Assembly: GCA_963715985.1 (NCBI GenBank)
Contig: CAVQSP010000014.1
Location: 576,001 to 640,000 of the forward strand
Length of the DNA stretch: 64,000 nucleotides
Source of the DNA: an uncultured Thermoleophilia bacterium
GTDB lineage: Bacteria; Actinomycetota; Thermoleophilia; UBA2241
Direction: 5' to 3'
In this document: positions 7,120 through 58,800 of the stretch, piece by piece
How the letters are laid out: each line of letters starts with the position of its first letter
How positions within the stretch are numbered: the stretch's first letter is position 1
Notes under the pieces: model-generated
Seen by the model: the letters and a program-made list of their open reading frames with translations, nothing else
The model's database searches: none
Told to the model about the DNA's origin: nothing
Translations under genes and position numbers: made by a program

Positions 7120-7120
7120 G

Positions 7121-27940: not shown

Positions 27941-28010
27941 ATCGCTCCCCGGCAGGCGAGAGGGAGATGTGGCGGCGCGGCTGCTGTGATGCCTTTGCAG
28001 GAAGGATGAG

Positions 28011-31429: not shown

Positions 31430-31590
31430 GGCGACGGCGTTCGGGTCGCCGAGGGTCGCCGCGCTCGCCGCGGGTACGTGACGGTGGTGTGGCGGTCCGA
31501 AGCCGGGGTTCTCGCCGGCGAGACGCCCGCATTCGCCGTCGCGAGACGCACGCCGCTGAGAAAGCCGGTGCAAGCCGAGGGATGGGAGTG

Positions 31591-33669
31591 ATGATGCGGT
31601 TCGCGATAGACACTGGAGGGACCTTCACCGATCTGGCGGTCGAGGACGAGACCGGCAGGCTGCATCAGTTCAAGTCGCCCACCACTCCAGACGATCCTGT
31701 CCGCGGGCTGCTCGACGTGCTCCAAACAGCAGCCGAGCACTTCGAAACGACCCGGGAGGAGCTACTGGGACGCGGCGAGATGCTCATCCACGGCACCACC
31801 CGCGCCATCAACGCGGTGGTCACCGGAACGGTGGCCCGGACGGCCTTCCTCACCACATGGGGACAGCCGGAGATCCTCGTTGACCGCGAGGGCGGCAAGA
31901 CCAAGCCGTTCGACGCGTTCCAGGAGTTCCCCGAGCCGTACGTGCCGCGCGCCCTCACTTTCGAGATCCCCGAACGGGTCGCCTACGACGGGCAGATCGT
32001 CCGTCCGCTGGACGAAGAGGCGACTGCGCAGGTCCTCCTTGGGTTGCGCGATCAGCAGGTCGAGGCGGTCGGTGTGTGTCTGCTCTTCTCGACGATCAAT
32101 CCCGCGCACGAGCTGCGCGTTGGCGAGCTTCTGGCCGAGCTCGTGCCGGAGATCCCCTTCACGCTCTCGCACAAGCTCAACCCGATCCTCAGAGAGTACC
32201 GTCGGGCGTCGTCGACGGTCATCGATGCCTCGCTGAAACCGGTGATGAGCCAGTATCTTCACGGCCTCGAGGCCAGACTCCGGGAGGTCGGCTTCCGCGG
32301 TCGACTCCTCGTCTCCACCTCCAACGGTGGCGTGCTCGACGCCGCGGAAGTGGCGGAGGCTCCCATCCATGCTCTCAATTCCGGTCCCGCCATGGCTCCC
32401 ATCGCCGGCCGCGCTATCGCCGCGTCGGAGACCGGTCACGCCACGGTCGTCGTCGCCGATACGGGCGGGACGACCTACGACGTGAGCGTCGTCCAGCGGG
32501 GCCGCATCCCGACGACCGTGGAGACCTGGGTCGGCCCGAGGTACGTCGGTCACATGACCGGCTTCCCTTCGGTCGACGTGCGGAGCGTCGGCGCCGGTGG
32601 CGGCAGCATCGCCTGGGTCGACACGCATGGCCTCCTGCACGTGGGCCCGCAGAGCGCAGGCGCCGACCCGGGCCCCATCTGCTACGGCCGCGGCGGTGAC
32701 AGACCCACGCTCACCGACGCTTGCCTGGTCCTGGGGTATCTCGACCCCGCCTACTTCCTCGGCGGCGCCATGAAGCTCGAGGTGGGCGCTGCCCGGGAGG
32801 CGCTGAAGGACCTGGGCGGCCAACTCGGCCTGAAGGCAGAGCCGGCCGCCCATGCGGTCGTACAGGTGGCCACCGAGAACATGGTGCAGGCGATAGAGTC
32901 GATCACGATCGAGCAGGGTATCGACCCCACAGTCGCCGTGCTCATCGGCGGCGGCGGCGCGGCCGGCTTGAACGCCTCCATCGTGGGCAGAAGGCTCGGC
33001 TGCGACACCGTGATCATCCCGCAGCTCGGCGGTGTGCTGAGCGCCGTGGGGATGCTGCTGTCCGACCTCGTGGCCGAGTATGCCGCCACGTTCGTGGCGA
33101 CCAGCGACGACTTCGACCTGGCCGGCGTCAACGAGATCCTCGCCGGGCTGGAGGCGCGCGCCCGCGCCTTCATCGAGAGGGCCGGCCAGGACTCGGTCTC
33201 ATCGTCGCTGACATTCTCGGCTGACGCGCGCTATCCGGAGCAGATCTGGGAACTGCCGGTGACCTTGAGCAAGGGCCGGTTCGCGGATCTGGACGACGTG
33301 GAAGCGCTCCGTCGGGGGTTCCATGAGATCCATCACGAAGTGTTCGCAGTTAGCGACCCCCTGTCCTCGATCGAGATCGTCGGCTGGCGTGTGCGCGCCG
33401 AGTGCCGACTGCGAGAGAGAGACCTCAGCGTCCCGCTCGAAGAGGGCTCGGGGCCAGGCCACGGGGCGCGAGAGGCCTGGTTCCCAGACGTGGGGACGCT
33501 GTCCACCCCGGTCGTGGAGTTCTCCAGCCTGACGGAGAACGAACCGAGACTGGGGCCGCTCCTGGTCGAGTCCCCGCTGACGACCGTGGTCGTGGAACCC
33601 GGAACGGTGGCGGTGCGCTCCGGGCTCGGGAACCTTCTCCTGAGCCGCAACGACCCTGGACTCACCTGA
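31591..33669 (+). CDS. Hydantoinase A / 5-oxoprolinase ATP-binding subunit
   Basis: IDTGGTFTD, HGTTRAINA, REYRR, SGPA, DTGGTTYD, GAGGGSIA, SAGADPGP, TLTDA. Confidence 0.93.
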   Translation: MMRFAIDTGGTFTDLAVEDETGRLHQFKSPTTPDDPVRGLLDVLQTAAEHFETTREELLGRGEMLIHGTTRAINAVVTGTVARTAFLTTWGQPEILVDREGGKTKPFDAFQEFPEPYVPRALTFEIPERVAYDGQIVRPLDEEATAQVLLGLRDQQVEAVGVCLLFSTINPAHELRVGELLAELVPEIPFTLSHKLNPILREYRRASSTVIDASLKPVMSQYLHGLEARLREVGFRGRLLVSTSNGGVLDAAEVAEAPIHALNSGPAMAPIAGRAIAASETGHATVVVADTGGTTYDVSVVQRGRIPTTVETWVGPRYVGHMTGFPSVDVRSVGAGGGSIAWVDTHGLLHVGPQSAGADPGPICYGRGGDRPTLTDACLVLGYLDPAYFLGGAMKLEVGAAREALKDLGGQLGLKAEPAAHAVVQVATENMVQAIESITIEQGIDPTVAVLIGGGGAAGLNASIVGRRLGCDTVIIPQLGGVLSAVGMLLSDLVAEYAATFVATSDDFDLAGVNEILAGLEARARAFIERAGQDSVSSSLTFSADARYPEQIWELPVTLSKGRFADLDDVEALRRGFHEIHHEVFAVSDPLSSIEIVGWRVRAECRLRERDLSVPLEEGSGPGHGAREAWFPDVGTLSTPVVEFSSLTENEPRLGPLLVESPLTTVVVEPGTVAVRSGLGNLLLSRNDPGLT

Positions 33670-33699
33670 CGTCATGGCACCCGACAGTGCGGAGGTCCA

Positions 33700-35491
33700 C
33701 ATGAAGGCCGAGGCGTCCAAGTCCTCATCGTCCACGATCGACGGCGTGAAGCTCGCCATCATGAGCAGCCGGATGGACGGGATCGTTACGCGCATGACGA
33801 ACACGCTGCTGCGCACGGCCCGTTCGGGCGTGCTGGCGGTCGCCAAGGACTTCTCCTGCTGCCTCCTCGCCGCGAACGGGGACCTTCTCGCGATGGCCGA
33901 AGCAGAGCCCATCCACGTCCTCAACAGCCACTTGCTCGGGCGCGCGCTGAACGAACTTCAGCCGGTACTCAAGCCGGGAGACGCCTTTCTCAACAACTCG
34001 CCCTATCACGGGAACACGCACGCCGCCGACTGGTCGGTGCTCGTCCCCATCTTCGATGACGACGGCAGGCACCGCTGCACGGCGGTGGTGAAGGGACATC
34101 AGGCGGACTGTGGGGATTCCATTCCGACGACGTATCACAGCGCCGCCAAGGACGTGTACGAGGAGGGGGCTCTCATCTTCCCGTGCGTGAAGGTCCAGAG
34201 CGACTACGAGGACAACGAGGACATCGTCCGCATGTGCAGGATGCGGATCCGCGTACCGGACCAGTGGTGGGGCGACTACCTCGCTCTCATCGGCGCCGCG
34301 CGCATCGGAGAGCGCGAGATGGTCGAGTTCGGGCGCGAAGTGGGGTGGGACGTCATCGACAGCTTCATCGCCCAGTGGTTCGACTACAGCGAGCGCACGA
34401 TGATCGAAGCGGTCAGAGGCCTCACCGCAGGGCGGACCACCGTGCGCGGGTGGCATGACCCCGTCGAGGGTCTCGATGCTCTGCCGGTCAACGTCAGCGT
34501 CGGGGTGGATCCCGAGAACGCCATGATCGAGGTCGATCTGCGCGACAACATGGATTGCCAGCCGTTCGGGCTGAACCTGAGCGAAGCCTGTTCGAGTGGC
34601 GCCGCTCTGGCAGGCGTCTTCTGCGGGATCTGCGCGGACATCCCGTTCAACGGCGGCAGTCTGCGACGAGTCCGGGTCCACCTTCGCGAGAACTGCATCG
34701 TGGGCATCCCTCGCCATCCCTTCAGCTGCTCGGCGAGCACCACCAACCTGGCGGACCGCGTGGCCAACACGGTGATGCGGGCCATGGCCGACCTCGGGGA
34801 CGGCATGGGGCGGGCGGAATACGGCCTCGTCTTGCCGCCCTCCATCGGCGTGATCTCGGGGAACGACCCCCGCAGTGGCGGCGCCCCGTTCGTGGACGAG
34901 GTCTTCCTGCACGGCCTTACGGGAGGTGCCGCGACTCCGCACGCGGACGGCTGGCTTACCGCGACCGACGCCGTCACGTTGGGCATGGGTCTTCTGGACA
35001 GCGCCGAGATCGACGAGATCGCCTTCCCCATCCGGGTACTTGAGCAGCGCCTGATCCCCGACAGCGAAGGGCCGGGCAGGTTCTGTGGCGCGCCTGGAGC
35101 CATGACCGTGATGGAAGCCGTGGATACCACCATCGAGATCTGGTACGGCAGTGACGGCACGGTGAATCCCGCGCTGGGCGCACGGGGCGGCGGACCCGGC
35201 AGTCGAGCGGAAGCCTGGAAGCGCCTAAGTACCGGCGAGATCGTGCAGGCGCCGGCGCACGGCCTGGTGAAGCTCGAGCCGGGCGAGGCGATGATCTCCA
35301 AGAGCTGCGGCGGCGGCGGCTACGGCTCGCCCCTCGAACGCGACCCGCAGCGGGTGCTGCACGACGTCCTCGAGGGCCGTGTCTCTGTGACGCGGGCGCG
35401 AGAGGTGTACGGGGTCGCTGTGCTCGATGGGCTCGTCGACCAGGCTGCCACGGAGGACCTGCGCTCAGGCATGCAGGGTGAGGCCACCTGA
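33700..35491 (+). CDS. Hydantoinase B / 5-oxoprolinase hydrolytic subunit
   Basis: DFSC, PIH, NSPYHGNTHAAD, HQADCG, EEG, DSEGPG, GGGGYGSPLERDP; GGAGG RBS before ATG 33700. Confidence 0.93.
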
Positions 35492-41487: not shown

Positions 41488-42600
41488 GTGAGCGTGCCTA
41501 GCCGCACGATCGTGGTCGTGGGCGGCGACACCGCCAGCTTGCTCGTCGCCGCCTGGCTCGCCGCCGCCGGCCACCAGATCGTCCTCTGGGAACTGCGCGA
41601 CGGCGCGATGGGCCCGGCGGGCGCGAGCGCACCGGGCGAGCTCATGCTCAGCGTGGCAGGGCGCGATACGGCGGTCGTGTTCGCGGGGGTCACGACCGAC
41701 GCCTTCGAGGCGCTGGCCGCCGGCGACGTGGTGGTCACCTGCGCGCCGCCGCACGCCCAACAGGCCTTCGCCGACGCGGTGCTGCCCCTCGTGGAGCCGA
41801 GGCATCTGCTGGTCCTGCCGGCCGGCGGCCTCGGCAGCCTCGCGTGCGCGAAGTGGCTGCGCGACCGGGGGCGCTGGGAGCTGCCGACCTTCGCCGAGAG
41901 CGACACGATGCCGGTCCTCGGCGATCTCGAGGGCCCGGCACGCCTGCGTGTCGACGCGGTCGCGTCCCGCTTGGGGTTCGGCGTCTTCCCGGCCGAGCGC
42001 ACCGCTGCCGCCCGGGACCCCCTTGTCGATCTGTTCCCCGGGGCCAGGGCTCACGTGCACGTCCTCGCCGCGGCGCTGGCCGGGGTCGAGCGTTTCGTGC
42101 GCGCGCCGGCGCTGGTGATGAACGCCGGCGCTTCGGAACGTGGCGGGCCGCCGGCGTCGCTGCTGGCCGACGGGTTCACCCGGGAGGTCGCGCGAGTGGC
42201 CGAGGCGCTTGACGGCGAGCGCTGCGCGCTCGCCCGGGCCCTCGGCCTTGATCTGCCGCCGGCCGCCGAAGCACTCTGCGAACGTGGTCTCAGCCCCGGC
42301 GGTGATCTCTGGGCCGCCGTTCACGGCAGCTTCGCGCTGACGCGCCCGCCGGCCGCCGGCGTGGTGCCGGCAGATCTCCAGGCCGACGACGTGTCCTTCG
42401 GAGTGCGCCTCTGGGTCGAGCTTGGCGGCGCGCTCGACGTGCCGATGCCCGTCGCGGGCGCGCTACTGACGCTGCACGATGCCGCCCGCCCGTCGACTGG
42501 ATGGGCCGGCCGGACACTCGAGGACCTCGGTCTGGCCGGCCTGAGCGGCGATGCCCTGCAGCGCTTTCTGACCACCGGGACCGGCGAACCGGACGCCTGA
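41488..42600 (+). CDS. NAD/NADP opine dehydrogenase family protein, degenerate motifs
   Basis: PAGGLGSL, FAESDTMP, GVFPAERT, DGERCALARALG and DDVSFG fit the fold, but GxGxxG is absent. Confidence 0.7.
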   Translation: MSVPSRTIVVVGGDTASLLVAAWLAAAGHQIVLWELRDGAMGPAGASAPGELMLSVAGRDTAVVFAGVTTDAFEALAAGDVVVTCAPPHAQQAFADAVLPLVEPRHLLVLPAGGLGSLACAKWLRDRGRWELPTFAESDTMPVLGDLEGPARLRVDAVASRLGFGVFPAERTAAARDPLVDLFPGARAHVHVLAAALAGVERFVRAPALVMNAGASERGGPPASLLADGFTREVARVAEALDGERCALARALGLDLPPAAEALCERGLSPGGDLWAAVHGSFALTRPPAAGVVPADLQADDVSFGVRLWVELGGALDVPMPVAGALLTLHDAARPSTGWAGRTLEDLGLAGLSGDALQRFLTTGTGEPDA

Positions 42601-42637: not shown

Positions 42638-43645
42638 GTGATCGTGGATGCACACAACGACCTGCTGGTCGAAGTGGCCCACTTCCGCCACGAGGCGGCT
42701 CCGTTCCGCGCCCGCTGGCTGGAGCAACTGCGGCGCGGCGGCGTCGGCCTTCAGGTCTGCCCCGCGTCCGTGGACGTGAACGAGTTGCCGGAGTTCGGCC
42801 TGCGCCGCAGTCTCACCCAGATAGCGGAGTGTCACCGGGCGGCAGCCCAGGACCCGGACGAGGTCGTGCTCGTGCGCGATGCCGCCGGCCTGGACGAGGC
42901 CCTTGCCACCGGCCGGCTCGCCCTTCTCCTTTCCATGGAGGGCGCTGAGCCACTCGGCTACGACCCGGCCATGGCGGACGTGTTCTGGCTCCTCGGCGTG
43001 CGCATGTTCTCCCTCACGTGGAACCGCAGGAACCCGTTCGCGGACGGCCTCGGCGAGGCCAATGACGGTGGGCTCAGCGACCTGGGCCGGGAGCTCGTGG
43101 AACGCCTGTGCCGGCTGGGCATGGTCCTTGACCTCGCGCACGCCTCCCGGCGCACGTTCTTCGACGTGCTGGAGCGCGCGCCGGACGCGCCGGTCGTCGT
43201 CAGTCACGCCTGCTGCCGTGCCGTCTACGACATCCCGCGCAATCTGACCGACGACCAGCTGCGCGCGCTGGCCGATCACGGCGGCGTGCTGGCGGTCATG
43301 GGCATCCCGCTCGCCGTCGATCTGGAGGCGCCCTCCCTCGAGCGTGTGGCCGATCACATCGACCACGCCGTGGACGTGATGGGCGTGAGACATGTGGGGC
43401 TCGGCGCCGACTTCATGACGCAGATCGTGGAATCCGGCGCCGAGCCCGCGTTCCAGGCGACGAGCCTCATGCCTGAGGGGATGTCGTTCGCCGAGGCCGT
43501 GCCCGGGTTCAGCGGGCCGGCGGACTACCCGGCGCTGGCGGCGGTCCTCGGGGCACGGGGATACGCCGGGGAGGCGCTCGATGCCATCCTCGGCGGCAAT
43601 CTGCTGAGAGTCATCCGGGGAGCGCTGGCCGCCGGCGGCGACTGA
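42638..43645 (+). CDS. Membrane dipeptidase (peptidase M19) family amidohydrolase
   Basis: DAHND, SMEG, LTWN, DLAH, SHA, RNLTD, VGLGADF, ILGGN. Confidence 0.93.
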   Translation: MIVDAHNDLLVEVAHFRHEAAPFRARWLEQLRRGGVGLQVCPASVDVNELPEFGLRRSLTQIAECHRAAAQDPDEVVLVRDAAGLDEALATGRLALLLSMEGAEPLGYDPAMADVFWLLGVRMFSLTWNRRNPFADGLGEANDGGLSDLGRELVERLCRLGMVLDLAHASRRTFFDVLERAPDAPVVVSHACCRAVYDIPRNLTDDQLRALADHGGVLAVMGIPLAVDLEAPSLERVADHIDHAVDVMGVRHVGLGADFMTQIVESGAEPAFQATSLMPEGMSFAEAVPGFSGPADYPALAAVLGARGYAGEALDAILGGNLLRVIRGALAAGGD

Positions 43646-43689: not shown

Positions 43690-44349
43690 GTGGACACGCA
43701 CCCGACCATCGCAGCCATCATCAGCGCCTTCACGGAGGCCGACTTCGACGCCGTCCCCGGCCTCGTGGAGAAGGGCCTTGGACAAGGTCTGACGGCGCAG
43801 GCTCTGCTGGATGACGGCCTTGTGGCCGGTATCCGCGACGTGGGGGAGATGTTCCGGCGCGGCGAAGTCTACCTGCCGGAGATGATGCTGGCGGCGGAAG
43901 CCTGGCAGTCCGGCATGGACGTGCTGGCGCCCCAGCTCGCCGAGCGCGCCGCCGCGGAGCCGAAGGGAACGGTGGTCATCGGCACCGTGAAGGGCGACAT
44001 CCATTCGCTCGGCAAGACCATCGTGTCCACCATGCTCAGGACCGCCGGGTTCGAGGTCGTCGATCTCGGCACCGACGTGCCGGCGTCTCGCTTCATCACG
44101 GCAGCCACCGACGCGCGTGCCACGGTGATCGCCGCGTGCGCCTTGATGACGACGACGATGCCGCAGCAGCGCGAGGTGGTGGAGCACGCCGTGGCCGCCG
44201 GGAGGCGTGACGAGCTGTTCATCATGATCGGGGGAGCCTCCACCAGCCCGGCGTGGGCCGTGGAGATCGGCGCGGACGGCCACGGGGAGACGGCTGCCGA
44301 CGCAGTGGCTCTCGCCGAGGACTTCGTCGGCCGGGTCGTGAGGAGCTGA
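43690..44349 (+). CDS. Corrinoid protein (MtmC/MtbC-like), copy 3
   Basis: YLPEMMLAA, GTVKGDIHSLGK, DLGTDVP, ALMTTT, IMIGGA, EIGAD. Confidence 0.93.
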   Translation: MDTHPTIAAIISAFTEADFDAVPGLVEKGLGQGLTAQALLDDGLVAGIRDVGEMFRRGEVYLPEMMLAAEAWQSGMDVLAPQLAERAAAEPKGTVVIGTVKGDIHSLGKTIVSTMLRTAGFEVVDLGTDVPASRFITAATDARATVIAACALMTTTMPQQREVVEHAVAAGRRDELFIMIGGASTSPAWAVEIGADGHGETAADAVALAEDFVGRVVRS

Positions 44350-44351
44350 CG

Positions 44352-45780
44352 ATGCTGGGCAACCTGGAGATCTATCGCCGCGCGACGACCGGCGAGATCT
44401 GCTCGGAGAAGGACTTCGACCTGCGTCGCTTCATCCCGGCCCTGCGGAGGCTGGTGAAGGCTCACGGGATCGTCTGCGACCGCAGTACGCCGGTGCCGGC
44501 GGACGACGACCTCGCCGACCGCGTCTGGCAGGCCGGCCGCGAACTGTTCCTGGAAGTGGGGGTGTTCTGCCCCGACACCGAACGGGTCATCCGGTTCGAC
44601 GCGGCGGAGCTCGACCAGGCCCTGGCACACGCGCCGCGCCCGGTGGTGGTCGGCAGCGGACAGTTCGCGCGGACGATCCCGGTGCGGCGTCCGGAGAGCG
44701 CGACGCTCCCGTTCTTCTCGCTGGGGGCCTGCGGCGCCGGCGTGACCAGCGACGAGGTGTTCATGAGCCTCACGCAGGCGTATTGCGAGCTGCCGTACAT
44801 CGACGCCATCGCCATGCCGGCGCTCACCCGAGATCGACGGCATGACCATCGTGGCGGGCAGCCCGCTCGAGGTCGAGGGATGCGTGCGTACGGTGACGAT
44901 GGCGCGCGAGGCGACACGGCGCGCGAACAAGGCGGGAATGGGGATCGCCAACACCGTGCCGACCGGCGTGCGCTCGCAAGGGCACATCGCCGGCAATGCA
45001 GCCGCGGCCGACCAGTGGGACATGATGGAGATAGGCGGTCACGCGGAGTTCAAGGTCGACTTCGACAGCCTGAGCAAGATCGCGTACATGCAGGGCCGGG
45101 GCCGGACGATCCTCGGAGAGACGGGGCCTCTGCTCGGCGGCTATGCCGGCGGTCCCGAAGGCTGCGCCGTCGCCCTTGCCGCCTACCACTTCTTCGCCCT
45201 GCTGGTGCTCCGTGCAGCCGTGCAGCACCCGTTCACGTCGCACTTCCAGACGCAGTCCTGTACCTCGCGGGAGGCCATCTGGCTGCGCTCGGTCGCTCTG
45301 CAGGCCATCACGCGGCACAGCGACGTGCCGTGTCTGGAGTCGGGCACCTACGCGGCCGGGCCGGGCACCGAGATGAGCCTTTTCGAGGCCGCCGCGATGG
45401 CGGCTCCCAGTGTGGTGTCGGGCGGCAGCGTCGAGTCGGGGCCGACAGCGCGGGCGACGCACCTCGATCACCTCTCGCCGATGGCGAACCTCTTCGCCGC
45501 CGAAGTGGGACGCTCAGTGGCCGGCATGTCCCGCACCGACGTCAACGACCTCGTGGTGCGTCTGCTGGACAAGTACGAGGATCACCTCACCGACCCGCCC
45601 TTCGGGCGGCGCTACCAGGAGTGTTACGACATGGCCAGCCGGCAGCCGGACGCCGAGGCGAGGGCGGTGTATCGGACGGCCCGAGCGGCGGTGGCAGCCA
45701 TGGGCCTGGAGTTCCGCGACCCGCGCGTTCTACGACTGAGGACGGGCGTGAAGCGCTGCGCCGACCTACTGGAGGTGTGA
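44352..45780 (+). CDS. Monomethylamine methyltransferase MtmB-family protein, pyrrolysine-free (frameshift near 44828)
   Basis: RATTG...EKDFD, VPADDDLADRVWQAG, GVFCPDTERVIRF, RRPE, GSPLE, AGMGIAN, EFKVD, LGGYAGGPEG, AGPGTEM, LLDKYE, GRRYQECYD; directly follows the corrinoid gene. Confidence 0.88.
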
Positions 45781-45782: not shown

Positions 45783-47453
45783 ATGAAGCTGACGGGAGCG
45801 CAGTACCTCGCCCGCACGCTTGAGGGCTACGGCGTGACGCACTTCTTCCACGTGCCGGCCATCATCCCGTGGACGCTTGCGCAGATGGAGGAGACAGGGC
45901 GCATCACCCGAGTGGTCACGCACGACGAACGTGCGGCCGGGTACATGGCCGACGGGTACGCGCGCGCCTCCGGGCGCCCGGGCGTGTGCGGCTGCCAGAT
46001 GATCGGGACGAACAACCTGGCGGCCGGACTGCGGGACGCCTTCATGGCGCGTTCCCCGGTGCTGGCGTTCAGCGGCGGCTCCTACGTGAGATCCCGCCAC
46101 CGCCACCAGTATCAGGAGATCGACGGCTTGCCCGTGTTCGCCCCGGTCACCAAGTTCAACGTGCAGGTCGATGACGTGACCCGGTTGCCGGACCTGCTGC
46201 GTCAGGGCTTCCGCGCCGCCACGAGTGGCAAGCCGGGGCCGGTCCACCTGGCGCTCGAGGGGCACTTCGGCGAGGAGACGGAGCTCCAGGAGGCGGAGCT
46301 CGACGATCTCGTCGAAGAGCGGTTCGCCGGCGTACCGCCGTTCCGGCCTCTGCCTCAGGCGGATCAGGTGACCGCTGCCGTCCGGCTGCTGGTGGAGGCG
46401 GAGCGCCCCGTGCTCGTCGCGGGCGGCGGCGTGCGCCAGTCCGGCGCCGGCTCCGAGCTGCTCGCGCTCGCGGAGCTTCTGTCTGTCCCGGTGGCCACCT
46501 CGCTCAACGCGAAGGACGTCATACCGGGCGACCACCCGCTGGCCCTGGGCGTCCCCGGGCTGTACCAGCGTGAGAGCGCCAACCGGGCACTCCTGGAGGC
46601 GGATCTCGTCTGCTACGTCGGCAGCCAGACCGGCAGCCAGGTGACCAGGAACTGGACGATCCCTCTTCCGGGCACGAGGGTCGTGCAGATAGACGTAGAC
46701 CCTGAGGAGCTGGGCCGGCACTACCCGAACGCCGTGTCGGTCCTCGGCGATGCCAAGCTCACGCTCGGCCAAATGGCTGAGGCCGTCGAGGCACCCGTAC
46801 GGCGGCCGGCCTGGACGGCGCGCGCCGCGGAGCTCGTGGCCGCGTGGCGCGCCTCGGTGGACGAACACGTGACCAGCGACGCGGCGCCGATGCGGCCGGA
46901 GCGCCTGCTGGGCGAGCTCGGCCGCGTCCTGCCCTCGGACAGCATCGTCGTCGCCGACACCGGCCACGCCGGCTTCTGGACGGGGACCTACCTCGACCTC
47001 ACACGACCCGGCCAGGGCTTCCTGCGGGCCGCGGGCTCGCTGGGCTGGGGTTTCCCGGCCGCGCTGGGTGCCAAGATGGCCGTCGGTGACGAGCGGTCCG
47101 TGGTCCTGTTCACGGGGGACGGCGGCCTCTGGTACCACCTCGCGGAGATCGAGACGGCGCTGCGCTGGGGCGTCAAGGTCGTCGTCGTGGTCAACGACAA
47201 CCATTCCATGAACGAGCAGATCCCCTTCTACGAGCCGATGTACGGCGGCCGGCTGCACGGGCGGCACGAGGACCTCTGGGTCTTCCGCGAGGTCGACTTC
47301 GCGGCGGTGGCGACATCGCTCGGAGCCATCGGCCGCCGCGTCGAACGGCCTCGGGACTTCGCTCCTGCCCTCGAGCAGGCCCTCGAGGCCGATCGGCTCA
47401 CTGTGCTCGATGTGCTCACCGACATCGAGGCGGAATGTCCCTGGGGCGCTTGA
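45783..47453 (+). CDS. Thiamine diphosphate-dependent enzyme (acetolactate synthase-like)
   Basis: HDERAAGYMADGYARASGRPG, YQEID, GPVHL, GSLGWGFPAALG, GDGG...NDN. Confidence 0.92.
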   Translation: MKLTGAQYLARTLEGYGVTHFFHVPAIIPWTLAQMEETGRITRVVTHDERAAGYMADGYARASGRPGVCGCQMIGTNNLAAGLRDAFMARSPVLAFSGGSYVRSRHRHQYQEIDGLPVFAPVTKFNVQVDDVTRLPDLLRQGFRAATSGKPGPVHLALEGHFGEETELQEAELDDLVEERFAGVPPFRPLPQADQVTAAVRLLVEAERPVLVAGGGVRQSGAGSELLALAELLSVPVATSLNAKDVIPGDHPLALGVPGLYQRESANRALLEADLVCYVGSQTGSQVTRNWTIPLPGTRVVQIDVDPEELGRHYPNAVSVLGDAKLTLGQMAEAVEAPVRRPAWTARAAELVAAWRASVDEHVTSDAAPMRPERLLGELGRVLPSDSIVVADTGHAGFWTGTYLDLTRPGQGFLRAAGSLGWGFPAALGAKMAVGDERSVVLFTGDGGLWYHLAEIETALRWGVKVVVVVNDNHSMNEQIPFYEPMYGGRLHGRHEDLWVFREVDFAAVATSLGAIGRRVERPRDFAPALEQALEADRLTVLDVLTDIEAECPWGA

Positions 47454-47489: not shown

Positions 47490-48521
47490 GTGAACACACC
47501 GACGTACGCGCCGCCTGACGGCGCCGAGGTGATCCGAACGATCGACGTCCACGCCGCCGGAGAGCCTGTGCGGGTCATCGTGGAGGGCCTCGCTGCCATT
47601 CCCGGAGCCGACATGCTGGCGAAGCGCCGCTATGCCCAGGAGCACCTCGACGCTCTCCGCCGTCGGCTCATGTGGGAGCCCCGCGGACACGCCGACATGT
47701 ACGGCGCGATCCCCACGGAGCCAGTCACCGACGACGGCGACTGCGGGGTGCTGTTCCTGCACAACGAGGGCTTCAGCACCATGTGCGGGCACGGCATCAT
47801 CGGCCTCACGAAGATCCTGCTCGAGACGGGGATGGTGACGCCCGGGGAGGGCACGTCGACCGTCCGCATCGACACGCCCGCGGGCCGCGTCGTAGCCCGC
47901 GCGACTGCGGATCGCGGGACCGTCCGGGAGGTCGTGTTCGACAACGTGCCGTCGTTCGTGTACCGGCGAGGAATCGAGGTCGGCCTCGCCGGCATCGGCA
48001 AGACCATCTGCGACATCGCCTTCGGCGGCGCGTACTACGCGTTCTGCAACGCCGCCGACCTGGGCCTGACTTTGGAGCCCGCGCAGCACGACCGCCTGAT
48101 CGAGGTCGGCAGACTCGTCAAGAAGGCGGTGCTGGCGCAGACGGCCATCGAGGACCCGGTCGCTCCCGACCTCGGGTTCCTCTACGGCGTCATCTTCACC
48201 GGTCCGCCGGCCGCGGCGGGCCACCACAGCCGCCACGTCTGCGTCTTCGCCGAGGGCGAAGTGGACCGCTCGCCCACGGGCACCGGAGTCAGCGCGCGTG
48301 CCGCCCTGCTGAGCGAGGCGGGGCAGTTGCCTGACGGTGAGCCCATCATGATCGAAAGCATCCTCGGCACATGCTTCGGCGTGGCGGTGGTGGGCCACTC
48401 CAGGGTCGGTCCGTTCCCCGCAGTGATCCCGGCCGTCTCCGGGGAGGCGTACGCGACGGGGATGAGCACCTTCTTCGTGGAGCGCGGTGACCCGCTCGGT
48501 GACGGCTTCATCTTCAGATGA
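47490..48521 (+). CDS. Proline racemase superfamily, Cys/Thr type (trans-3-hydroxyproline dehydratase-like)
   Basis: HAAGEP, EPRGHADMYG, TMCGH and DRSPTGTG. Confidence 0.88.
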   Translation: MNTPTYAPPDGAEVIRTIDVHAAGEPVRVIVEGLAAIPGADMLAKRRYAQEHLDALRRRLMWEPRGHADMYGAIPTEPVTDDGDCGVLFLHNEGFSTMCGHGIIGLTKILLETGMVTPGEGTSTVRIDTPAGRVVARATADRGTVREVVFDNVPSFVYRRGIEVGLAGIGKTICDIAFGGAYYAFCNAADLGLTLEPAQHDRLIEVGRLVKKAVLAQTAIEDPVAPDLGFLYGVIFTGPPAAAGHHSRHVCVFAEGEVDRSPTGTGVSARAALLSEAGQLPDGEPIMIESILGTCFGVAVVGHSRVGPFPAVIPAVSGEAYATGMSTFFVERGDPLGDGFIFR

Positions 48522-48603
48522 CCGGCGCGCGATCCATCCGCGTGCTGCCCCTCCGTCCGTTGGCGGCCCTCGCTGCCGCCGGTGGGTCGAGCAAGGACGG
48601 GAC

Positions 48604-49578
48604 GTGAGGTACGCCGGCCTCTGTACTTCCGTGCTTGAGGCGATCGGCCAGACACCGCTCGTCGAGCTCGGCAGGATCGGCGTGCCGTACGGCGGCCGGA
48701 TCCTCGCCAAGCTCGAGTACCTGAACCCCGGGCACTCGAAGAAAGACCGCATCGCCCTGGCGATGATCGAGGAGGCCGAGCGCTCGGGTGCGCTAGCTCC
48801 CGGGCAGACAGTGGTCGAGCTCACGAGCGGCAACTGCGGTACGGGCCTCGCCATCGTGTGCGCCGTGACGGGTCACCCTTTCGTCGCGGTCATGTCGCGC
48901 GGAAACACCATCGAGCGCGCCCGCATGATGGCTGCGCTGGGCGCCGAGGTCGTGCTCGTCGACCAGCTGCCAGGCTCGACTCCAGGCCAGGTCTCGGGCG
49001 GGGACCTCGACCTCGTCGAGCGGGAGACTCTGCGGGTGGTGCGCGAGCGGGGCGCCTTCCGCGCCAACCAGTTCGAGCTGGCCGCCTGCGTCGATGCGCA
49101 CTACGCCCATACTGCTCGCGAGCTCCTCGAGCAGTCTGGGGGAAACGTGACCGCCTTCTGCGATTTCGTCGGCAGCGGCTCCACGTTCACGGGGTGCGCG
49201 ACCGCTCTCAAGGAGTACGACCCCTTGATCTGCTGCTACGTGGTCGAGCCGCGCGGGGCCGCCGTGCTCTCGGGACGGGAGCTCCAGAACCCCAGCCATC
49301 GCATCCAGGGCGGCGGATACGCACGCGCGCACCTTCAGCTCATGCGCACCGACCTGGTCGATGGCTATCTGCAGATCAGCGACGAACAGGCGATCGCCAC
49401 CGCCCGCGATCTTGCGCGGCGGGAGGGCCTGTTCGCCGGGTTCAGCTCCGGAGCGAACGTGGCCGCCGCTCTCCAGCTGCTCAAAGGACCGCACCGCGGC
49501 GGCACCGTGGCCGTGCTCCTCTGCGACAGCGGGATGAAGTACTTGAGCACCGATCTGTGGCCCTCGGCGATCGATTGA
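48604..49578 (+). CDS. PLP-dependent cysteine synthase family protein, atypical
   Basis: IGQTPL, KLEYLNPGHSKKDR, TSGNCG, NQF, HRIQG, EGLFAGFSSGAN, DSGMKYLST. Confidence 0.88.
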   Translation: MRYAGLCTSVLEAIGQTPLVELGRIGVPYGGRILAKLEYLNPGHSKKDRIALAMIEEAERSGALAPGQTVVELTSGNCGTGLAIVCAVTGHPFVAVMSRGNTIERARMMAALGAEVVLVDQLPGSTPGQVSGGDLDLVERETLRVVRERGAFRANQFELAACVDAHYAHTARELLEQSGGNVTAFCDFVGSGSTFTGCATALKEYDPLICCYVVEPRGAAVLSGRELQNPSHRIQGGGYARAHLQLMRTDLVDGYLQISDEQAIATARDLARREGLFAGFSSGANVAAALQLLKGPHRGGTVAVLLCDSGMKYLSTDLWPSAID

Positions 49579-49731: not shown

Positions 49732-50688
49732 ATGAACCAGTACATGTGGGCCTACGCCGACCCGTATCAGTGGATGGAGCGCACGGCGAAGTTCCCGCCG
49801 ATGATCGTCACCTGCGCGGTGGACGGCGGCATCCAGGGCAAGGAGAGTCATCCGGCGCTTCCCGAGCTGCCCGACGAGATCGCCCTGGAGTGCCAGGCGG
49901 CCTACGAGGCCGGCGCATCGATCGTGCACATCCACGGTCGGGACCCCGACAACTTCACCAACTGCACCGATGACCCCGAGGTGTACCGGGACATCCTTGG
50001 ACGCGTGCGCGAGAAGTGCCCCGAGCTGATCATCAACATCACCACAGGCGGCGGTCCCACGACCACCGACGAGGGCCGAGTGGCCATCCTCGACGCCGGG
50101 CCAGAGATGGCGACCCTGAACCTCGGTCCGGACATGGAGCGCTTCGAGCTCGCGGAACGTAAGCCGCCGCTGCCGCACCCCCGCGAGGCGATGGTCGTCG
50201 ACATGGTCATGCCGTTCACCTACGGCTTCATCGACCGGCTCGCCGGCGTGATGCTGGAGAAGGGCATCAAGCCGGAGCTCGAGATCTACCAGCCCGGCCA
50301 GTACTGGGTGAGTCGCGGGCTGGCGGAGCGGGGCCTCATCAAGCCTCCGTACTCGCACCAGTTCGTCATGGGCGTGCAGACGGCCATCTACCCGACACCC
50401 TGGAACGTGCTGGCGATGCTGAGCGAACTCCCCGACGACTCGGTGTTCACGGTCGCCGCCATCGGCAAGTTCCAGTGGCCCCTCATCACCATGGGCATCA
50501 TCCTCGGCGGCAACGTGCGCGTGGGCCTCGAGGACAACCTGTACGAGCGACGCGGCCGCAAGCTGACGGGGAACGGCGAGGCGGTACAGAAGGCCGTGCG
50601 CCTCGCCCGGGAGTTCGGCCGCGAGATCGCCACGCCGGCCCAGGCGCGCGAGATGCTGGGGCTGTCGGCCACACCAAGCAGCTACTGA
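49732..50688 (+). CDS. Beta-keto acid cleavage enzyme (BKACE/DUF849, Kce-like)
   Basis: IVTCAVDG, PALP, AGASIVHIHGRD, NITTGG, PEMATLN, IKPELE, GGNVRVGLEDN. Confidence 0.93.
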   Translation: MNQYMWAYADPYQWMERTAKFPPMIVTCAVDGGIQGKESHPALPELPDEIALECQAAYEAGASIVHIHGRDPDNFTNCTDDPEVYRDILGRVREKCPELIINITTGGGPTTTDEGRVAILDAGPEMATLNLGPDMERFELAERKPPLPHPREAMVVDMVMPFTYGFIDRLAGVMLEKGIKPELEIYQPGQYWVSRGLAERGLIKPPYSHQFVMGVQTAIYPTPWNVLAMLSELPDDSVFTVAAIGKFQWPLITMGIILGGNVRVGLEDNLYERRGRKLTGNGEAVQKAVRLAREFGREIATPAQAREMLGLSATPSSY

Positions 50689-50703: not shown

Positions 50704-51943
50704 ATGGAGGACGAAGAAGTCACGCGAGCTCTTCGAGCGTCTCGCGAAGGTCATGCCCGGTGCGAGCACCCGTACCGTCACTCACTACGACCCCTTCCCG
50801 ATCGCGCTCGAGCGCGGACAGGGCTGCCGTCTCTGGGACGTCGACGGCAACGAGTACATCGACCTGCTCAACAACTACACCGCCCTCGTGCACGGTCACA
50901 ACCACCCGGCCATCGTTGAGGCCCTCGCTCGCACGGCGACGGGGGCGCTTATCCGCGGCCGTGCCGGCGCCCATCGAGCTGCAGGGCGAGTTGGCGTAGC
51001 GCGCTGTGCGCGCGCACGCCCTCCATCGACCGCGTGCGCTTCACCAACTCGGCCTCGGAGGCCGTGATGATGGCTGTCCGCGTAGCCCGCGCCTACACCG
51101 GGAAGGACGACTTCATCATGCCGGCCAACGGCTATGGCGGGGGCTGGGACCAGGTGATGCTGGCCGGCACAGACGAGGAGCATCCAGAGGGCTCCCAGGG
51201 CAACGTACCGGCAGGCATCCCGAAGATCCTGACCGAGGTCGTCCACTTCGTGCGCTTCAACGACCTCGGGCACTTGGAGCAGGTGCTGGACGACGCACGG
51301 CCCCACCACCGCGGCCGTCCTGCTCGAGCCGATCCTTGGACACACCGTCGTGCCCGGCGACCCCGACTTCGTCCGTGCCGCCCTACGCCTGGCGCACGAG
51401 CACGGAGCACTCCTGATCCTGGACGAGACCATCACCTCGCGCCTGTACGTGGGCGGCTGGCAAGCCGAACACGGCATTGAGGCCGACCTGACCACTCTCG
51501 GCAAGACGATCGGCGGCGGCACACCGGTCGGTGCGTTCGGCGGCAAGGAGCACGTGATGCGCATCCTCGACCCGCGCGCGGACGACGCCCTCGCCGCGCA
51601 TGGGACCATGAACGGCAGCCCGCTGTGCATGGCCGCCGGCTGCGCCAGCCTCGACCTGCTGACGCAGGAGGCCATCGACCGCATCAACGGCATGGGCGAC
51701 TTCCTCACCTCTGAGCTCGACGTCATCGGCCGCGAGGCCGGCGTGCGCGTGCACAACTACGGTTCTCTGCTCCAGGTCATGGCCCCCGACATCCTCGCGT
51801 TCCACCGAGCCTGCCTCGAGGAAGGGCTGTACATCGCCCCGCGCGGCAGCATGAACCTGTCCACCGTGATGGACGACGAAGTCCTCGGGGAGATCGCTGC
51901 GGCCTGGGCACGCGCCGTGGAGCGGACCAGCACCGCGCACTGA
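50704..51943 (+). CDS. Class III aminotransferase (GSA aminomutase-like), several frameshifts
   Basis: MPGASTR, LWDVDGNEYID, HGHNHP, RFTNSASEA, ARAYTG, LILDE, LTTLGKTIGGG, HGTMNG. Confidence 0.85.
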
Positions 51944-52001: not shown

Positions 52002-53447
52002 ATGGCGACCAAGACCGTGTCCTTGCTGAGCGAGGAGGCGCTGGACCGCATCCACGCCGAGTCCCTGAGGATCCTCGAGAACATCGGTGTGCGCGTGGAG
52101 AACGCCGGGTGTCGCGACGTGCTCATCAAGGCGGGCGCCGTGGCCGTTGGGCAGACGGACGTCCTGCGGCTGCCGGCGACCATGGTCGGGGAGGCCATGG
52201 CGCAGATCACCAAGACGTACGACCTCGTACACCCCGGGGGTGCGCGCATCAGGACGCCGGACGGCAGGCAGCACGCCGGCGTGCGCGTCAAGATGCCCAA
52301 GGTGCTCGACTACGGCGCCGACCACTTCCGGCCGCCGCGCCGCCAGGACGTGATCGACCTGTGCCGCATCACCAACGCCCTTCCCGGCGCCGAGTTCACG
52401 GTGGCCATCCAGTACCCGAGCAGCGACGTCCCGGTCGAGATCGACGTCGCCGACAGCCTCGGGCTGGTGCTGGCCATCACCGGCAAGCTCAGCCTGCTGG
52501 CCCCCGGCACCGTGGACGACGCCCGCACCTCGCTGGATCTGACGATGGCGGCGGCCGGCACCGACGATCTGGACCGCGACCCTGCCACCTGGGTGGAGAT
52601 CAACACCACGACGCCCCTCGTGCTCGGGCGCCGTGAGGGCGACATCATCCTGCACGTCGTCGGGCGCTGCTGCCCGGTGGACGTGGGGCCGATGCCGATC
52701 GCCGGCGTCGCGACGCCGGCGACGCTGGCCGCCAACCTCGCGCTCGGCAACGCCGAGGCGCTCTTCCTGTGCACCCTCGCCAACGCCATCTGGCCCGGCG
52801 CCAAGATCCTCCACGCCACGACCGGCTCGCTGATGAACATGCGCACCGGGTATCTCTCGATGGGCTCGGCCGAGACCTGTCTCCTGAGCAGCGGAGAGAT
52901 GGCGCTCGCCAAGTACTACGGGCTGCCGAGCACGCGCATGGGCGGCTACAGCGACTCCCAGTGGCCAGACGTGCAGGCTGGGATCGAGAAGGCCATGGCG
53001 CTGCTCATCCTCGCGCAGAGCGAGGCCGACTTCGTCACCATGGGCGGCCCCCTCGACAACGCGGCGCACCACAGCTACGAGCAGGTGGTCATCGACCACG
53101 ACATCTGGGAGATGGCGCAGCGGCTCACCACCGAGATCGTGGTCGACGACGCCACGCTGGCCTACGACGTCATCGAGAAGGTCGGCCCGGGCGGCTCGTT
53201 CCTCGGCGAGAGGCACACCAGGCGCGCCGTACAGGCGGGCGAGCACTACTACGGCGGCTCGTTCAACCACATGGGGCGCACGGGTCAGGAGTACACGATG
53301 CTGGCGCGGGCGCACCAGAGGGTGCAGGACATCCTGGCGCAGCCGTTCGAGTTCGGCGCGCCGCCGGACGCGGTGCTGCGCGTCAAAGACTACGTGCGCG
53401 CGCACGCCCTGGAGAAGGGCGTCGCGCCGCCGGCGTGGACGGAGTGA
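52002..53447 (+). CDS. Trimethylamine methyltransferase MttB superfamily protein, pyrrolysine-free
   Basis: RIHAESLRILENIG, AGVATPATLA, NAEAL, MNMRTG, GSAE, YYGLP, SDSQWPDVQAGIEK, SYEQVVID, VGPGGSFLGERHT. Confidence 0.92.
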   Translation: MATKTVSLLSEEALDRIHAESLRILENIGVRVENAGCRDVLIKAGAVAVGQTDVLRLPATMVGEAMAQITKTYDLVHPGGARIRTPDGRQHAGVRVKMPKVLDYGADHFRPPRRQDVIDLCRITNALPGAEFTVAIQYPSSDVPVEIDVADSLGLVLAITGKLSLLAPGTVDDARTSLDLTMAAAGTDDLDRDPATWVEINTTTPLVLGRREGDIILHVVGRCCPVDVGPMPIAGVATPATLAANLALGNAEALFLCTLANAIWPGAKILHATTGSLMNMRTGYLSMGSAETCLLSSGEMALAKYYGLPSTRMGGYSDSQWPDVQAGIEKAMALLILAQSEADFVTMGGPLDNAAHHSYEQVVIDHDIWEMAQRLTTEIVVDDATLAYDVIEKVGPGGSFLGERHTRRAVQAGEHYYGGSFNHMGRTGQEYTMLARAHQRVQDILAQPFEFGAPPDAVLRVKDYVRAHALEKGVAPPAWTE

Positions 53448-55595: not shown

Positions 55596-55802
55596 CCACC
55601 ATCCCGAATCCGGCACCTCGCGACCTCGAAGCACCGCCGGTCAGGGCCGGCTGCGATCCGGCGGCGACCACAGGACACACCAGGTCGAACCTATGGTTAG
55701 CCTCTGTTGCATCGGACTCCCTGGGGAGCGACGCTGTGAGGCGTCAAGTGGAGCCACTGCCCCGGGCAGCTCGTGCGGGGCCGAGCGCAGAGGAGACGGT
55801 CG

Positions 55803-58800
55803 ATGAGCACCCTCAGCCCGCGACGTCACAGCGATCCCGGGACGCGGACCGCAGGCCGCGACGACGTCGAGGCCGCCATCCGCGCCAAAGCGCACGAGCT
55901 CTTCACGCTCGTCGGACGGCATCGGTCCTCGCCGTTGACGGGTGAGCGCTGGCAGAGCGAGATGATGGCCTGGGCCACGGCGGACGAGCGGCTCAAGATC
56001 GAGCTCTTCCGCTTCATCGACGTGTTCCCGACGTTGCGCACCGGGGCCGACATCCAGCGTCATCTGCGCGAGTACCTCGACCAGCCTGGTCTGGCGACGC
56101 CACGGCTCCTGCGCGCCGGCCTCGCGGCCTCGCGGGAGCGCCACGTGGCACCGCTGGCCGCGGCCCTGATCCGGCGGCAGATGCTGAGCTTCGCGCGGCG
56201 CTTCATCGTCGGCCGCGATGCCGAGGACGCCCTTCCGGCACTCCGTGCGCTGCGCCGCCGCGGCATGGGATTCACGCTCGACGTGCTCGGCGAGGCCTCC
56301 GTGGGAGAACTGGAGGTGGCGGCCTACCAGGAGCGCTACCTCCAACTGCTCGAGGGACTCCGTCACGAGGCCGAGAGCTGGCCCTTCGATCCCATCCTGG
56401 ACCGCGCGGCGTGGGGGCCGGTGCCACGCGTCAACGTCTCGATCAAGATCACGTCTCTCTATTCGCAGATAGACCCGCTGGCCTTCCGCCGCTCGGTGGA
56501 CGCGGTGAAGGACAGGCTGCGTCCGGTCCTTCGCAGGGCGGCAGCGACCGGCGCCTTCGTGAACCTCGACCTCGAGCAGTTCCGCTATCGCGATCTCACG
56601 TTCGCCGTGTTCAAGGAACTGCTGGACGAGGACGAGTTCGCGCACTACGACGAGGCCGGAGTGGTCGTGCAGGCGTACCTGCGTGACGCCGAGGCCGACA
56701 TCCGTGCACTCATCGAATGGGCACGCGAGCGCGGGCGCGTGGTCACGGTGCGCCTCGTGAAGGGCGCGTACTGGGACTACGAGACGGTGCAGGCGGCGCA
56801 GGAGGGGTGGCCGGCCCCGGTGTTCACGCACAAGCCTGATTCGGACGTGACGTACGAGCGCATCACGCGCCTCATGCTGGAGCATCCGGCGCAGATCCGC
56901 CCCGCCTTCGCCAGTCACAACGTGCGTTCGCTCGCCTGCGCCATCGCCACGGCGGAGTCGCTGGGGTTGGCGAGCGACGCGTTCGAGCTCCAGCTTCTGC
57001 ACGGCATGGGTGAGCCAATCAAGGCGGCGCTCAGAGCCATGGGCCTGCGCGTCAGGGAGTACGCGCCGGTCGGGGAGCTCATCCCCGGCATGGCGTACTT
57101 CGTCCGCCGCCTGCTCGAGAACACGGCCAACGAGTCGTTTCTGCGGCTCACCTTCGCCGAGGGCGAGGACCGGGAGCGCCTGGAGCGTGCGCCGCGGCCG
57201 TCGCCCGACGTGGACCGGCCGCCGCAGCGGCTGCCCGCCGGCGCGCCCACCCACGTCGCCTATCCCGGCGCGTTCACCAATCAGCCGCACGCCGACTTCT
57301 CGCGGGAGGAGAACCGGACGGCCTTCGCCGAAGCCCTTGCGCGCGTGAGCGCCGGCACGGCTGCAGCGGGGGTCGGCCACCACTGGCCGCTCTGGATCGA
57401 CGGGGAGGCCGTGGAGACCGTCGACACCCTGACGTCTGTCGAGCCTGCCCGGCCGCAACGGGTGGTCGGGACGGCGGCGTACGCGGGCCCCCTCGAGGCG
57501 GAGGGCGCGGTGGCCGCGGCGCGCGCTGCCTTCACGTCGTGGAGCGTCACGCCGCCGGCGGGGCGCGCGGAGGTCCTCTTCCGCGCCGCCGAGCTGATGC
57601 GCCGCGAGCTCTTCGAGCTCGCGGCCCTCGAGGTGTTCGAGGCGGGCAAGACGTGGCGGGAGGCCGATGCCGACGTCGGCGAGGCCGTCGACTTCCTCGA
57701 GTACTACGGGCGTGAGATCCTGCGGCTCGAGGCCGAAGGCCGACTGGCCGCCGGGGACGACCGCGGCGACGGCCTCCTGCGGCCCCTGGGCGTCGCCCTC
57801 GTCGTCGCCCCGTGGAACTTCCCCCTCGCCATCCTCACCGGGATGGCCAGCGCCGCCCTGGTCACCGGCAACACCGTCATCGTCAAACCGGCGGGGCCGA
57901 CACCGGTGATCGGCGCGCAGCTGGCGCGCATCCTGCACGCCGCCGGCGCGCCGCCCGGGACCTTCAACTACCTACCTTCGCCCGGCGCCACCGTGGGTGA
58001 CCTCCTCGTGCGGCACCCGGGCGTGGACATCATCGTGTTCACCGGCTCCAAGGACGTGGGTCTGCACATCATCGAGGAGGCGGCCTGCCACCCCACCTCT
58101 CGCGGCCTGAAGCGGGTGATCGCCGAGATGGGCGGCAAGAACGCGCTCATCGTCGACGCCGACGCCGACCTCGACGTGGCCGTGCAGGAGTCCGTCGTCA
58201 GCGCCTTCCACTTCCAGGGCCAGAAGTGCTCGGCGGCCTCCCGCATCATCGTCCTGGAGTCCGCCTACGACGAGTTCCTCGCGCGTTTCGTGGACGCCGC
58301 GCGATCAGTAACGGTCGGCCCGCCCGACGATCCCTCCAGCCGCATGGGCCCAATCATCTCGGATGAAGCGCGGAAGACCATCGAGGCCTACATCGAGCAG
58401 GGCCTGCGGGAGGGCCGGCCGGCCCTCGTGACGAGGCCGCCGGCCGGCGGCTGGCCCGATGGCGGCTTCTATGTCGGTCCGCACGTGTTCGCCGACGTCG
58501 CGCCGACGGCGGTCATCGCCCAGGAGGAGATCTTCGGACCCGTGGTGGCCGTGATCAAGGTCCGCGACATCGATGAGGCGCTCGCCGTCGCCAACGGCAC
58601 GGAGTACGCGCTCACCGGCGGGTTGATCTCACGAAGCCCGGCGACGATCGCCCGTGTGCGCCGCGAGTTCAAGGTCGGCAACCTCTACATCAACCGGGGC
58701 ACGACGGGAGCCCTCGTGGAGCGCCAGGCGTTCGGCGGCTTCAAGATGAGCGGCATCGGCAGCAAGGCCGGCGGTCCGGACTACCTCGTGCAGTTCCTGA

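Follow-up and report, generated by a model that had tools for sequence, protein, structure and literature searches.

The question raised by this locus is which substrate serves an MtmB-family methyltransferase that has lost pyrrolysine (Pyl). The gene lies in 64,000 nucleotides (nt) of contig CAVQSP010000014.1 from an uncultured Thermoleophilia bacterium (hereafter the window), directly behind a gene for a corrinoid protein. Membership in PF05369 together with a standard residue at the Pyl site places the protein in the broad group of non-Pyl MtmB homologs; it is a member of a known, widespread group, from an uncharacterised branch, and a Pyl-free MtmB in a bacterium is, taken alone, ordinary. 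In intact relatives the enzyme very likely binds an N-methyl compound and passes its methyl group on to Co(I) of the corrinoid partner. That it uses B12 to demethylate secondary or tertiary N-methyl amino acids, once an MttB-family enzyme has acted, is the reading we favour, at somewhat less than an even chance. The features on which the argument turns are the following.

43690 to 44349, plus strand: corrinoid (B12-binding) protein of MtxC type, 219 amino acids (aa), from PF02607 and PF02310, 97% identity to the 219-aa protein P0390 and a complex score
44352 to 45739, plus strand: Pyl-free MtmB-family methyltransferase, 461 aa in intact relatives, from PF05369 in two frames, the alignment to 1L2Q, the database protein P0002 and gaps against the related locus L001
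44947 to 44949, plus strand: GCC codon of Ala199, at the position of Pyl202, from codon reading and alignments

The mtmB gene and its reading frame

The preliminary description of this DNA had reported Ala in place of Pyl, no in-frame TAG and a spacing of 2 nt behind the corrinoid gene, and all three readings hold. The corrinoid gene ends with TGA at 44347-44349, CG follows, and the ATG of mtmB stands at 44352. When aligned with Methanosarcina barkeri MtmB (1L2Q), Ala199, encoded by GCC at 44947, sits gap-free on Pyl202, a numbering confirmed by PMC9842639, and the Pyl column thus holds Ala, neither TAG nor another residue. A phmmer comparison with 1L2Q (E 2.5e-60, residues 6-454) placed NKAGMGI-A-NT on GRPGMGV-X-GP, one residue (Val or Ile) separating the GMG motif from the Pyl site. 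Neither coding frame has any TAG, and the sole TAG in 44352-45780 belongs to the third, non-coding frame. TAG serves as stop in 1 of 32 annotated genes; no pyl genes were found among the scanned open reading frames and no tRNA gene in the window, the search covering the window and the scanned loci.

The gene is split over two frames: the one that starts with 44352 covers positions 4-151 of the Pfam MtmB profile, the following one positions 158-450 (PF05369, profile length 450; 86 and 169 bits, cut-off 25), and the phase of G+C content at third codon positions changes frame near 44800. Alignment to the intact 461-aa gene of the syntenic Thermoleophilia locus L001 located extra single bases at about 44833 and about 45724. 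The second insertion produced the gene end at 45780 given earlier, which is wrong: relatives stop at 461 aa, corresponding to TGA at 45737-45739. P0002 (461 aa, nine member sequences) is intact and 98% identical to the window MtmB, from which it differs at 8 of residues 1-457, including two at the frame break, and was used as its stand-in for structure modelling. Because P0002 and L001 are intact and unrelated window genes are split too (a DHH-CBS-nucleotidyltransferase gene at 14557-17227 and a PAS-LuxR regulator gene at 59798-61124), the two mtmB frameshifts are most likely sequence errors, as far as sequence comparison can tell. Splits of this pattern are typical of uncorrected long-read assembly, and the split genes across the window suggest a high indel error rate in the assembly. 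The full set of apparently frame-split genes noted in the window covers 1637-2788, 8200-8878, 14557-17227, 50714-51943 and 59798-61124. Programmed frameshifting or recoding was rejected, L001 and P0002 being without both insertions and other genes being split too. As printed, the window copy is not expressible. A true pseudogene, in a cluster decaying here even if its relatives work, would account for the two +1 insertions and for the further breaks in the neighbouring transaminase gene (broken twice relative to L001), but it is quite improbable given the splits in unrelated genes, the intact P0002 so close in sequence and a second related locus, L002, in which most cluster genes are likewise split.

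Non-Pyl MtmB proteins had been described as having no established function, a statement now out of date, as a function was assigned to MtqB in March 2026 (PMC13044021). The implied rarity is not borne out either. P0002 matched 924 clusters at 50% identity with E<=0.001, 532 with 1e-10 and 180 with 1e-30, and bacterial Pyl-free homologs were noted in 2010 (PMC2933860) and 2022 (PMC9768040). The 2010 review pointed to MtmB homologs that have no amber codon and carry a small or hydrophobic residue in its place, and questioned whether they share the chemistry; the 2022 paper discusses bacterial non-Pyl MtmB, and both infer a different substrate. In PMC13044021, a tree of 1,061 MtmBs is presented and non-Pyl members other than MtqB are called functionally unknown. 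A phrase search for non-Pyl MtmB found only these three papers, in a literature from which subscription journals are mostly missing, and searches on Thermoleophilia methylotrophy gave no usable paper among those listed. No NCBIfam model matches P0001 or P0002. Among 72,556 plasmid records MtmB had no match, and the matches to two neighbouring genes, those for the beta-keto acid cleavage enzyme (BKACE) and for MttB, were distant (41% and 28% for the best listed).

The Pyl column of 121 aligned sequences holds Ala (49), Val (38), Met (18), Ser (11), Pro (3), Gly (1) and Ile (1), and in none of them Pyl, X or Lys, TAG-split genes being under-represented in such homolog searches. Lys occupies the column in 7 of 346 family members (P0287-P0291, P0228 and P0258); five of these group close to the Pyl clade, and one carries the name Methanomassiliicoccaceae. 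They may be natural Pyl-to-Lys variants, or their TAG may have been rendered as Lys by annotation.

The probable corrinoid partner and the active-site pocket

The corrinoid protein carries a DxHxxG-type B12-binding motif at residues 103-108, and its best NCBIfam models (MtbC, TIGR02370 and MtgC) all score below cut-off. It had been named as cognate to MtmB, and three lines of evidence make this very probable. The longest-contig size matched that of one of 120 corrinoid matches for 18 of the 61 best MtmB matches, for 0 of the next 59 and for 1 of 119 in a distant clade. MtmB and corrinoid distances were correlated over 19 pairs (rho 0.77, a value that none of 2000 permutations reached); for this count one pair whose sources disagreed was dropped, and the window pair, with P0002 as stand-in, and L001 were added. 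The complex model of P0002 with P0390 scored 0.70 versus 0.01 for the best of three controls, passing a mark that 116 of 157 solved pairs and 2 of 215 mismatched pairs also passed; contact agreement between runs was at least 95%, the partner had a predicted local confidence (pLDDT) of 86, and the B12-binding loop 102-108 is predicted to lie within the interface. Two considerations weigh on the other side. The distance correlation can also come from shared ancestry alone, and the complex result may reflect likeness to the solved MttB-MttC complex (7XCN), the specificity of MtmB versus MttB being outside what this comparison tests. Because similar methyltransferase-corrinoid complexes have been solved, we take the passed mark as likeness, not as binding. 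The protein encoded 2 nt upstream is, on the modelled interface and the pairing, very probably the MtmB partner. An adjoining upstream corrinoid gene is found for MtqB as well, and is common to many methyltransferases, so it is not specific to MtqB.

The model of P0002 from a 101-row alignment (pLDDT 96.6, predicted TM-score 0.94) superimposed on 1L2Q with a TM-score of 0.95, a root-mean-square deviation of 1.4 Å and 29% identity, indicating a predicted MtmB TIM-barrel fold. E229 and E259 of M. barkeri MtmB correspond to E226 and E256 in the 1L2Q alignment. Conservation was counted on an alignment of 346 proteins, those that reach 400 aa among the 388 stored for the family. Both pocket glutamates are kept in 44/57 relatives at >=55% identity and in 40/58 at 40-55% (84 of the 115 near relatives), and in 1/231 below 40%, a floor value, column assignment being less reliable there. 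N200 is kept in all 115 relatives at >=40% identity and H292 in all 57 at >=55%, and position 329 is acidic in 42 of the 57 close relatives. At the strand ends of the subfamily Glu, His and Asn predominate, together with one Phe or Tyr, and there is no obvious aromatic cage. Pyl itself is located in an anionic cleft according to PMC2933860, and a literature search on MtmB active-site residues found no paper for the role of E229/E259.

We placed the protein by a FastTree of C-terminal halves from 157 representatives and five fragments similar to the part of Pyl MtmB that follows the TAG, these presumed Pyl halves being recognised by motif only and MtqB not being included. In this tree P0002 ranks 158th of 161 other rows by distance from one presumed Pyl half; in a separate analysis of 104 rows, the close group (15 rows) forms a clade with support 1.0. 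Because it lies far from the Pyl halves and MtqB is reported near the Pyl enzymes, P0002 appears not to be a recently reverted Pyl enzyme and is probably not an MtqB, MtqB itself being outside the tree.

Gene neighbourhood and candidate substrates

One genome scan yielded three related loci from 76 candidate stretches: L001 (80%) and L002 (55%, best segment), both from Thermoleophilia metagenome-assembled genomes, and L003 (50%), from a bacterium. The neighbours of the gene pair in the window are as follows.

25818 to 26483, plus strand: GntR regulator (Pfam), directly upstream of the transporter in L001
35939 to 41445, plus strand: peptide/opine-type ATP-binding cassette (ABC) transporter with family-5 binding protein, two permeases and ATPase (Pfam; synteny in L001 and L002)
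41488 to 42600, plus strand: opine-dehydrogenase-like protein with altered nucleotide-binding motif (PF02317; Atlas hits 0.97; in L001 and L002)
42638 to 43645, plus strand: M19 dipeptidase (PF01244; in L001, no match in L002)
45783 to 47453, plus strand: thiamine-diphosphate enzyme, acetolactate-synthase-like (no match in L001-L003, window-only)
47490 to 48521, plus strand: proline-racemase-family enzyme of 3-hydroxyproline-dehydratase type (Cys99/Thr263; match to 6R76)
48487 to 49578, plus strand: cysteine-synthase-like pyridoxal-phosphate enzyme (no match in L001-L003, window-only)
49732 to 50688, plus strand: BKACE/DUF849 (PF05853; 89% in L001, 81% in L002)
50714 to 51943, plus strand: class-III aminotransferase of beta/gamma-amino-acid type (three pieces here, intact in L001)
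52002 to 53447, plus strand: Pyl-free MttB-family methyltransferase (PF06253; 78-86% in L001, 82% in L002)
55773 to 59699, plus strand: PutA, proline dehydrogenase / glutamate-semialdehyde dehydrogenase (68% identical in L001)

The window and L001 share long DNA blocks at 74-81% identity, which by itself makes a Thermoleophilia genome probable. Common to the window, L001 and L002 are the family-5 ABC transporter, the opine-dehydrogenase-like protein, the corrinoid protein, mtmB, the proline-racemase-family enzyme, BKACE, the class-III transaminase and the non-Pyl MttB, and the gene order of this conserved cluster is kept in 2/3 related loci (L001 and L002). GntR, the M19 dipeptidase, PutA and PanB are shared by the window and L001 only. 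L002 additionally has genes of the DHDPS, 3-hydroxyacyl-CoA-dehydrogenase (near BKACE) and IlvD families and genes for M20 and aldehyde dehydrogenase, and in L003 MttB and glycine cleavage genes accompany four mtmB paralogs, with two genes each for corrinoid proteins and class-III transaminases.

Several of these neighbours could act on an amino acid. The dehydratase-type enzyme has 6R76, the Thermococcus litoralis dehydratase (PMC9309405), as best PDB match (E 8e-112; NCBIfam 345 of 540 bits, below cut-off), and its Cys99/Thr263 pair, read by the Cys/Thr type rule of PMC3958920, is identical in L001 and L002. The L001 transaminase has 6K8H as best PDB match (E 3e-87) and keeps the equivalent of Arg36; 6K8H acts on beta- and gamma-amino acids, and its Arg was proposed as carboxylate binder (PMC10589169). 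BKACE enzymes are promiscuous and use acetyl-CoA to cleave beta-keto acids (PMC4922564). The closest solved relative of the cluster MttB is MtgB, but the alignment shows neither the aromatic pair nor the His of MtgB retained. The idea that this MttB is a glycine betaine enzyme found no support: by the binding set of PMC13080624, MtgB Y97, F356 and H348 are unmatched and R312 is off by one position.

On the reading we favour, the MtmB-family protein would act as MT1, the first and substrate-specific methyltransferase, in a corrinoid system of three components. The N-methylated substrate would bind at the mouth of the TIM barrel, and its methyl group would pass to Co(I) of the corrinoid protein whose gene lies 2 nt upstream. 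Since Ala at the Pyl site allows no covalent Pyl-methylamine adduct, the substrate itself would occupy the pyrrolysine space, with E226 and E256 holding its protonated secondary or tertiary amine. The non-Pyl MttB would demethylate a betaine before the MtmB-family protein takes the later methyl group or groups, and the freed amino acid would be broken down by the neighbouring enzymes. A secondary or tertiary amine is favoured on four grounds: an acidic pocket poor in aromatic residues, the co-conservation of a betaine-type MttB, the halt of demethylation with MtyB after a single methyl group, and the two demethylases and PutA of the aerobic route. In Eubacterium limosum with MtyB, demethylation ends after one methyl group, the fate of the product being stated as unknown, and MtyB shows <1% activity on a secondary amine (PMC8604678). 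Aerobic proline betaine catabolism employs two demethylases and then PutA (PMC3950512).

The preliminary description had proposed a different N-methyl substrate. A substrate other than methylamine is indeed likely. Of the substrates it had listed, N-methylproline best fits the conserved cluster; quaternary amines, the only class shown for the family, had been omitted. N-methyl-proline or N-methyl-trans-3-hydroxyproline, which fits the dehydratase and PutA, is our first candidate, a tentative one that we would not expect to be correct if taken singly. Second, as a slightly less likely choice, comes an N-methylated beta- or gamma-amino acid; this would suit the transaminase and BKACE, the better conserved neighbours. 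Sarcosine and N-methyl-gamma-aminobutyrate (N-methyl-GABA), also on the earlier list, are arguable from the hydantoinase genes at 31351-35491, genes that have no match in the three related loci. We down-weighted the corresponding routes (N-methylhydantoin to sarcosine, N-methylpyrrolidone to N-methyl-GABA) because hydantoinase A/B is unmatched in 3/3 loci and GntR directly precedes the transporter in L001.

Several points weigh against the favoured reading. M. barkeri E205, Q333 and Y335 are replaced by Pro, Ser and Thr, and E256 is Gly or Ala in 13 of the 57 close relatives. E229 and E259 presumably serve pyrrolysine chemistry. The cluster points two ways, to hydroxyproline and to a beta-amino acid, and there may be several substrates. 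The genomic context comprises three loci from one scan; PutA is absent from the flank of L002, which has only an aldehyde dehydrogenase (33%). Among the cluster genes scanned we found no second methyltransferase, no reductive activator and no cyclodeaminase-type pyrroline-2-carboxylate reductase. Finally, MtqB, the sole characterised non-Pyl MtmB, acts on quaternary amines (PMC13044021).

The last point leads to the strongest rival, a quaternary-amine demethylase like MtqB that would take choline, tetramethylammonium or a betaine such as hydroxyproline betaine or carnitine in parallel to MttB. The L002 gene of the 3-hydroxyacyl-CoA-dehydrogenase family lies near BKACE, a pairing known from carnitine breakdown, and fixed cations can also bind acidic pockets. 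Tetramethylammonium and choline are moreover the only substrates with demonstrated non-Pyl MtmB activity: partially purified MtqB of Methanococcoides methylutens Q3c methylated cob(I)alamin at 37 nmol/min/mg with tetramethylammonium, 42 with choline and 11 with methylamine, and its clade conserves a Met, a Cys and several aromatic residues around the ligand (PMC13044021). We nevertheless consider this rival unlikely, given that MtqB, which is outside our alignments, is reported near the Pyl enzymes from which P0002 is so distant, and given that the strand ends offer no obvious aromatic cage. An O- or S-methyl donor, or an enzyme running in the methylating direction, is improbable. In its favour are the wide range of donors handled by this fold, the great diversity of the family and the finding that, on dichloromethane, no protein was induced more strongly than a bacterial non-Pyl MtmB (PMC9768040); against it stand the acidic pocket and the conserved neighbours, whose substrates are amino acids and amines. 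Slow Pyl-free demethylation of mono- or dimethylamine, for example for nitrogen scavenging, would suit the kept acidic pair and the residual methylamine activity of MtqB, but is very improbable in view of the lost E205, Q333 and Y335, the peptide/opine-type transporter and the judgement of PMC2933860 that Pyl is crucial for rapid transfer and that Pyl-free homologs are unlikely to share its chemistry.

The broader proposal, that the subfamily is the missing anaerobic B12-dependent demethylase for secondary and tertiary N-methyl amino acids and, with non-Pyl MttB, strips a betaine such as (3-hydroxy)proline betaine completely, is possible though doubtful. If true, Thermoleophilia and Chloroflexota could use both the methyl groups and the carbon skeleton of a betaine, and the pyrrolidine ring of the substrate would replace the pyrrolysine ring between two conserved glutamates, a natural test of what pyrrolysine contributes. 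Most of the approximately 1,000 MtmB-family sequences in the 2026 survey are Pyl-free and without a function, one being characterised (PMC13044021). An enzyme for the later methyl groups would close the gap after the first demethylation and show a Pyl-free MtmB pocket at work; for this the locus gives an intact gene pair in relatives and a short list of substrates.

Further observations concern other genes of the window and the related loci. The best solved relative of the transporter is AgaA (6HLX), a weak match (E 9e-35). The L001 opine-dehydrogenase-like copy matches 1BG6. Both copies (window 41488-42600, L001 6948-8129) have Asp at the third position of the glycine-rich motif, and they differ from each other at conserved positions near the active site; judged from these residues, the protein may be inactive or use another cofactor. 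BKACE is the most conserved cluster gene (89% to L001). In place of the Thr-Gly-Ala/Ser-Ile of solved relatives it has an unusual Asp-Gly-Gly-Ile stretch, with Asn in L002. Between GntR and the peptide transporter, 26667-35491 holds a branched-chain-type ABC transporter and a hydantoinase/oxoprolinase A/B block, whose best NCBIfam model is caprolactamase, below cut-off; the block is absent at that place in L001. Next to GntR lies a two-subunit ADP-forming acyl-CoA ligase (23584-25821; beta subunit also at L001 3-650), which could convert the acyl-CoA made by BKACE to acid and ATP. L003 530-20634 contains the four non-Pyl mtmB genes in tandem, with differing pocket residues, and a GcvT-SHMT fusion frame; its two corrinoid genes yield identical match statistics. 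Approximately 37 kb upstream of mtmB, two URO-D/MtaA-like genes stand with two other corrinoid genes in a convergent arrangement, and this module (4007-7745) could be the source of a second methyltransferase.

4007-4627, plus strand: corrinoid gene of the second methyl-transfer module
4522-5883, plus strand: URO-D/MtaA-like gene of the second module
5995-7119, minus strand: URO-D-like gene, facing the plus-strand pair
about 7215-7745, minus strand: third corrinoid gene, facing the plus-strand pair

Comparison with known systems

The window protein resembles M. barkeri MtmB (PF05369; 1L2Q/1NTH) in its full-length family and fold match, in the kept E229/E259 and in its separate corrinoid protein. 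It differs in having Ala for Pyl202 and no TAG, in the loss of E205, Q333 and Y335, in its bacterial host and in its distant branch. With MtqB/MtqC (PMC13044021), compared by description only, it shares a non-Pyl MtmB homolog of about 460 aa directly downstream of a corrinoid gene; MtqB, however, is archaeal, near the Pyl MtmBs, encoded beside the pyl operon and active on tetramethylammonium and choline, whereas the window protein apparently comes from a distant branch and has genes of amino-acid catabolism around it. The non-Pyl MttB demethylases (MtgB, MtpB, MtcB, MtyB and MthB), one of which is in the cluster, have likewise lost Pyl, take a larger N-methyl substrate and pass the methyl group to a corrinoid protein, but they form a separate family (PF06253) with 10-11% identity by structure, and the known members use quaternary amines. 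The aerobic proline betaine pathway of HpbB/C, HpbA and PutA (PMC3950512) offers the parallel of two demethylases of different families followed by PutA; its Rieske and flavin demethylases, in contrast, are oxidative and release formaldehyde, with no B12 methyl transfer in the pathway as that source describes it.

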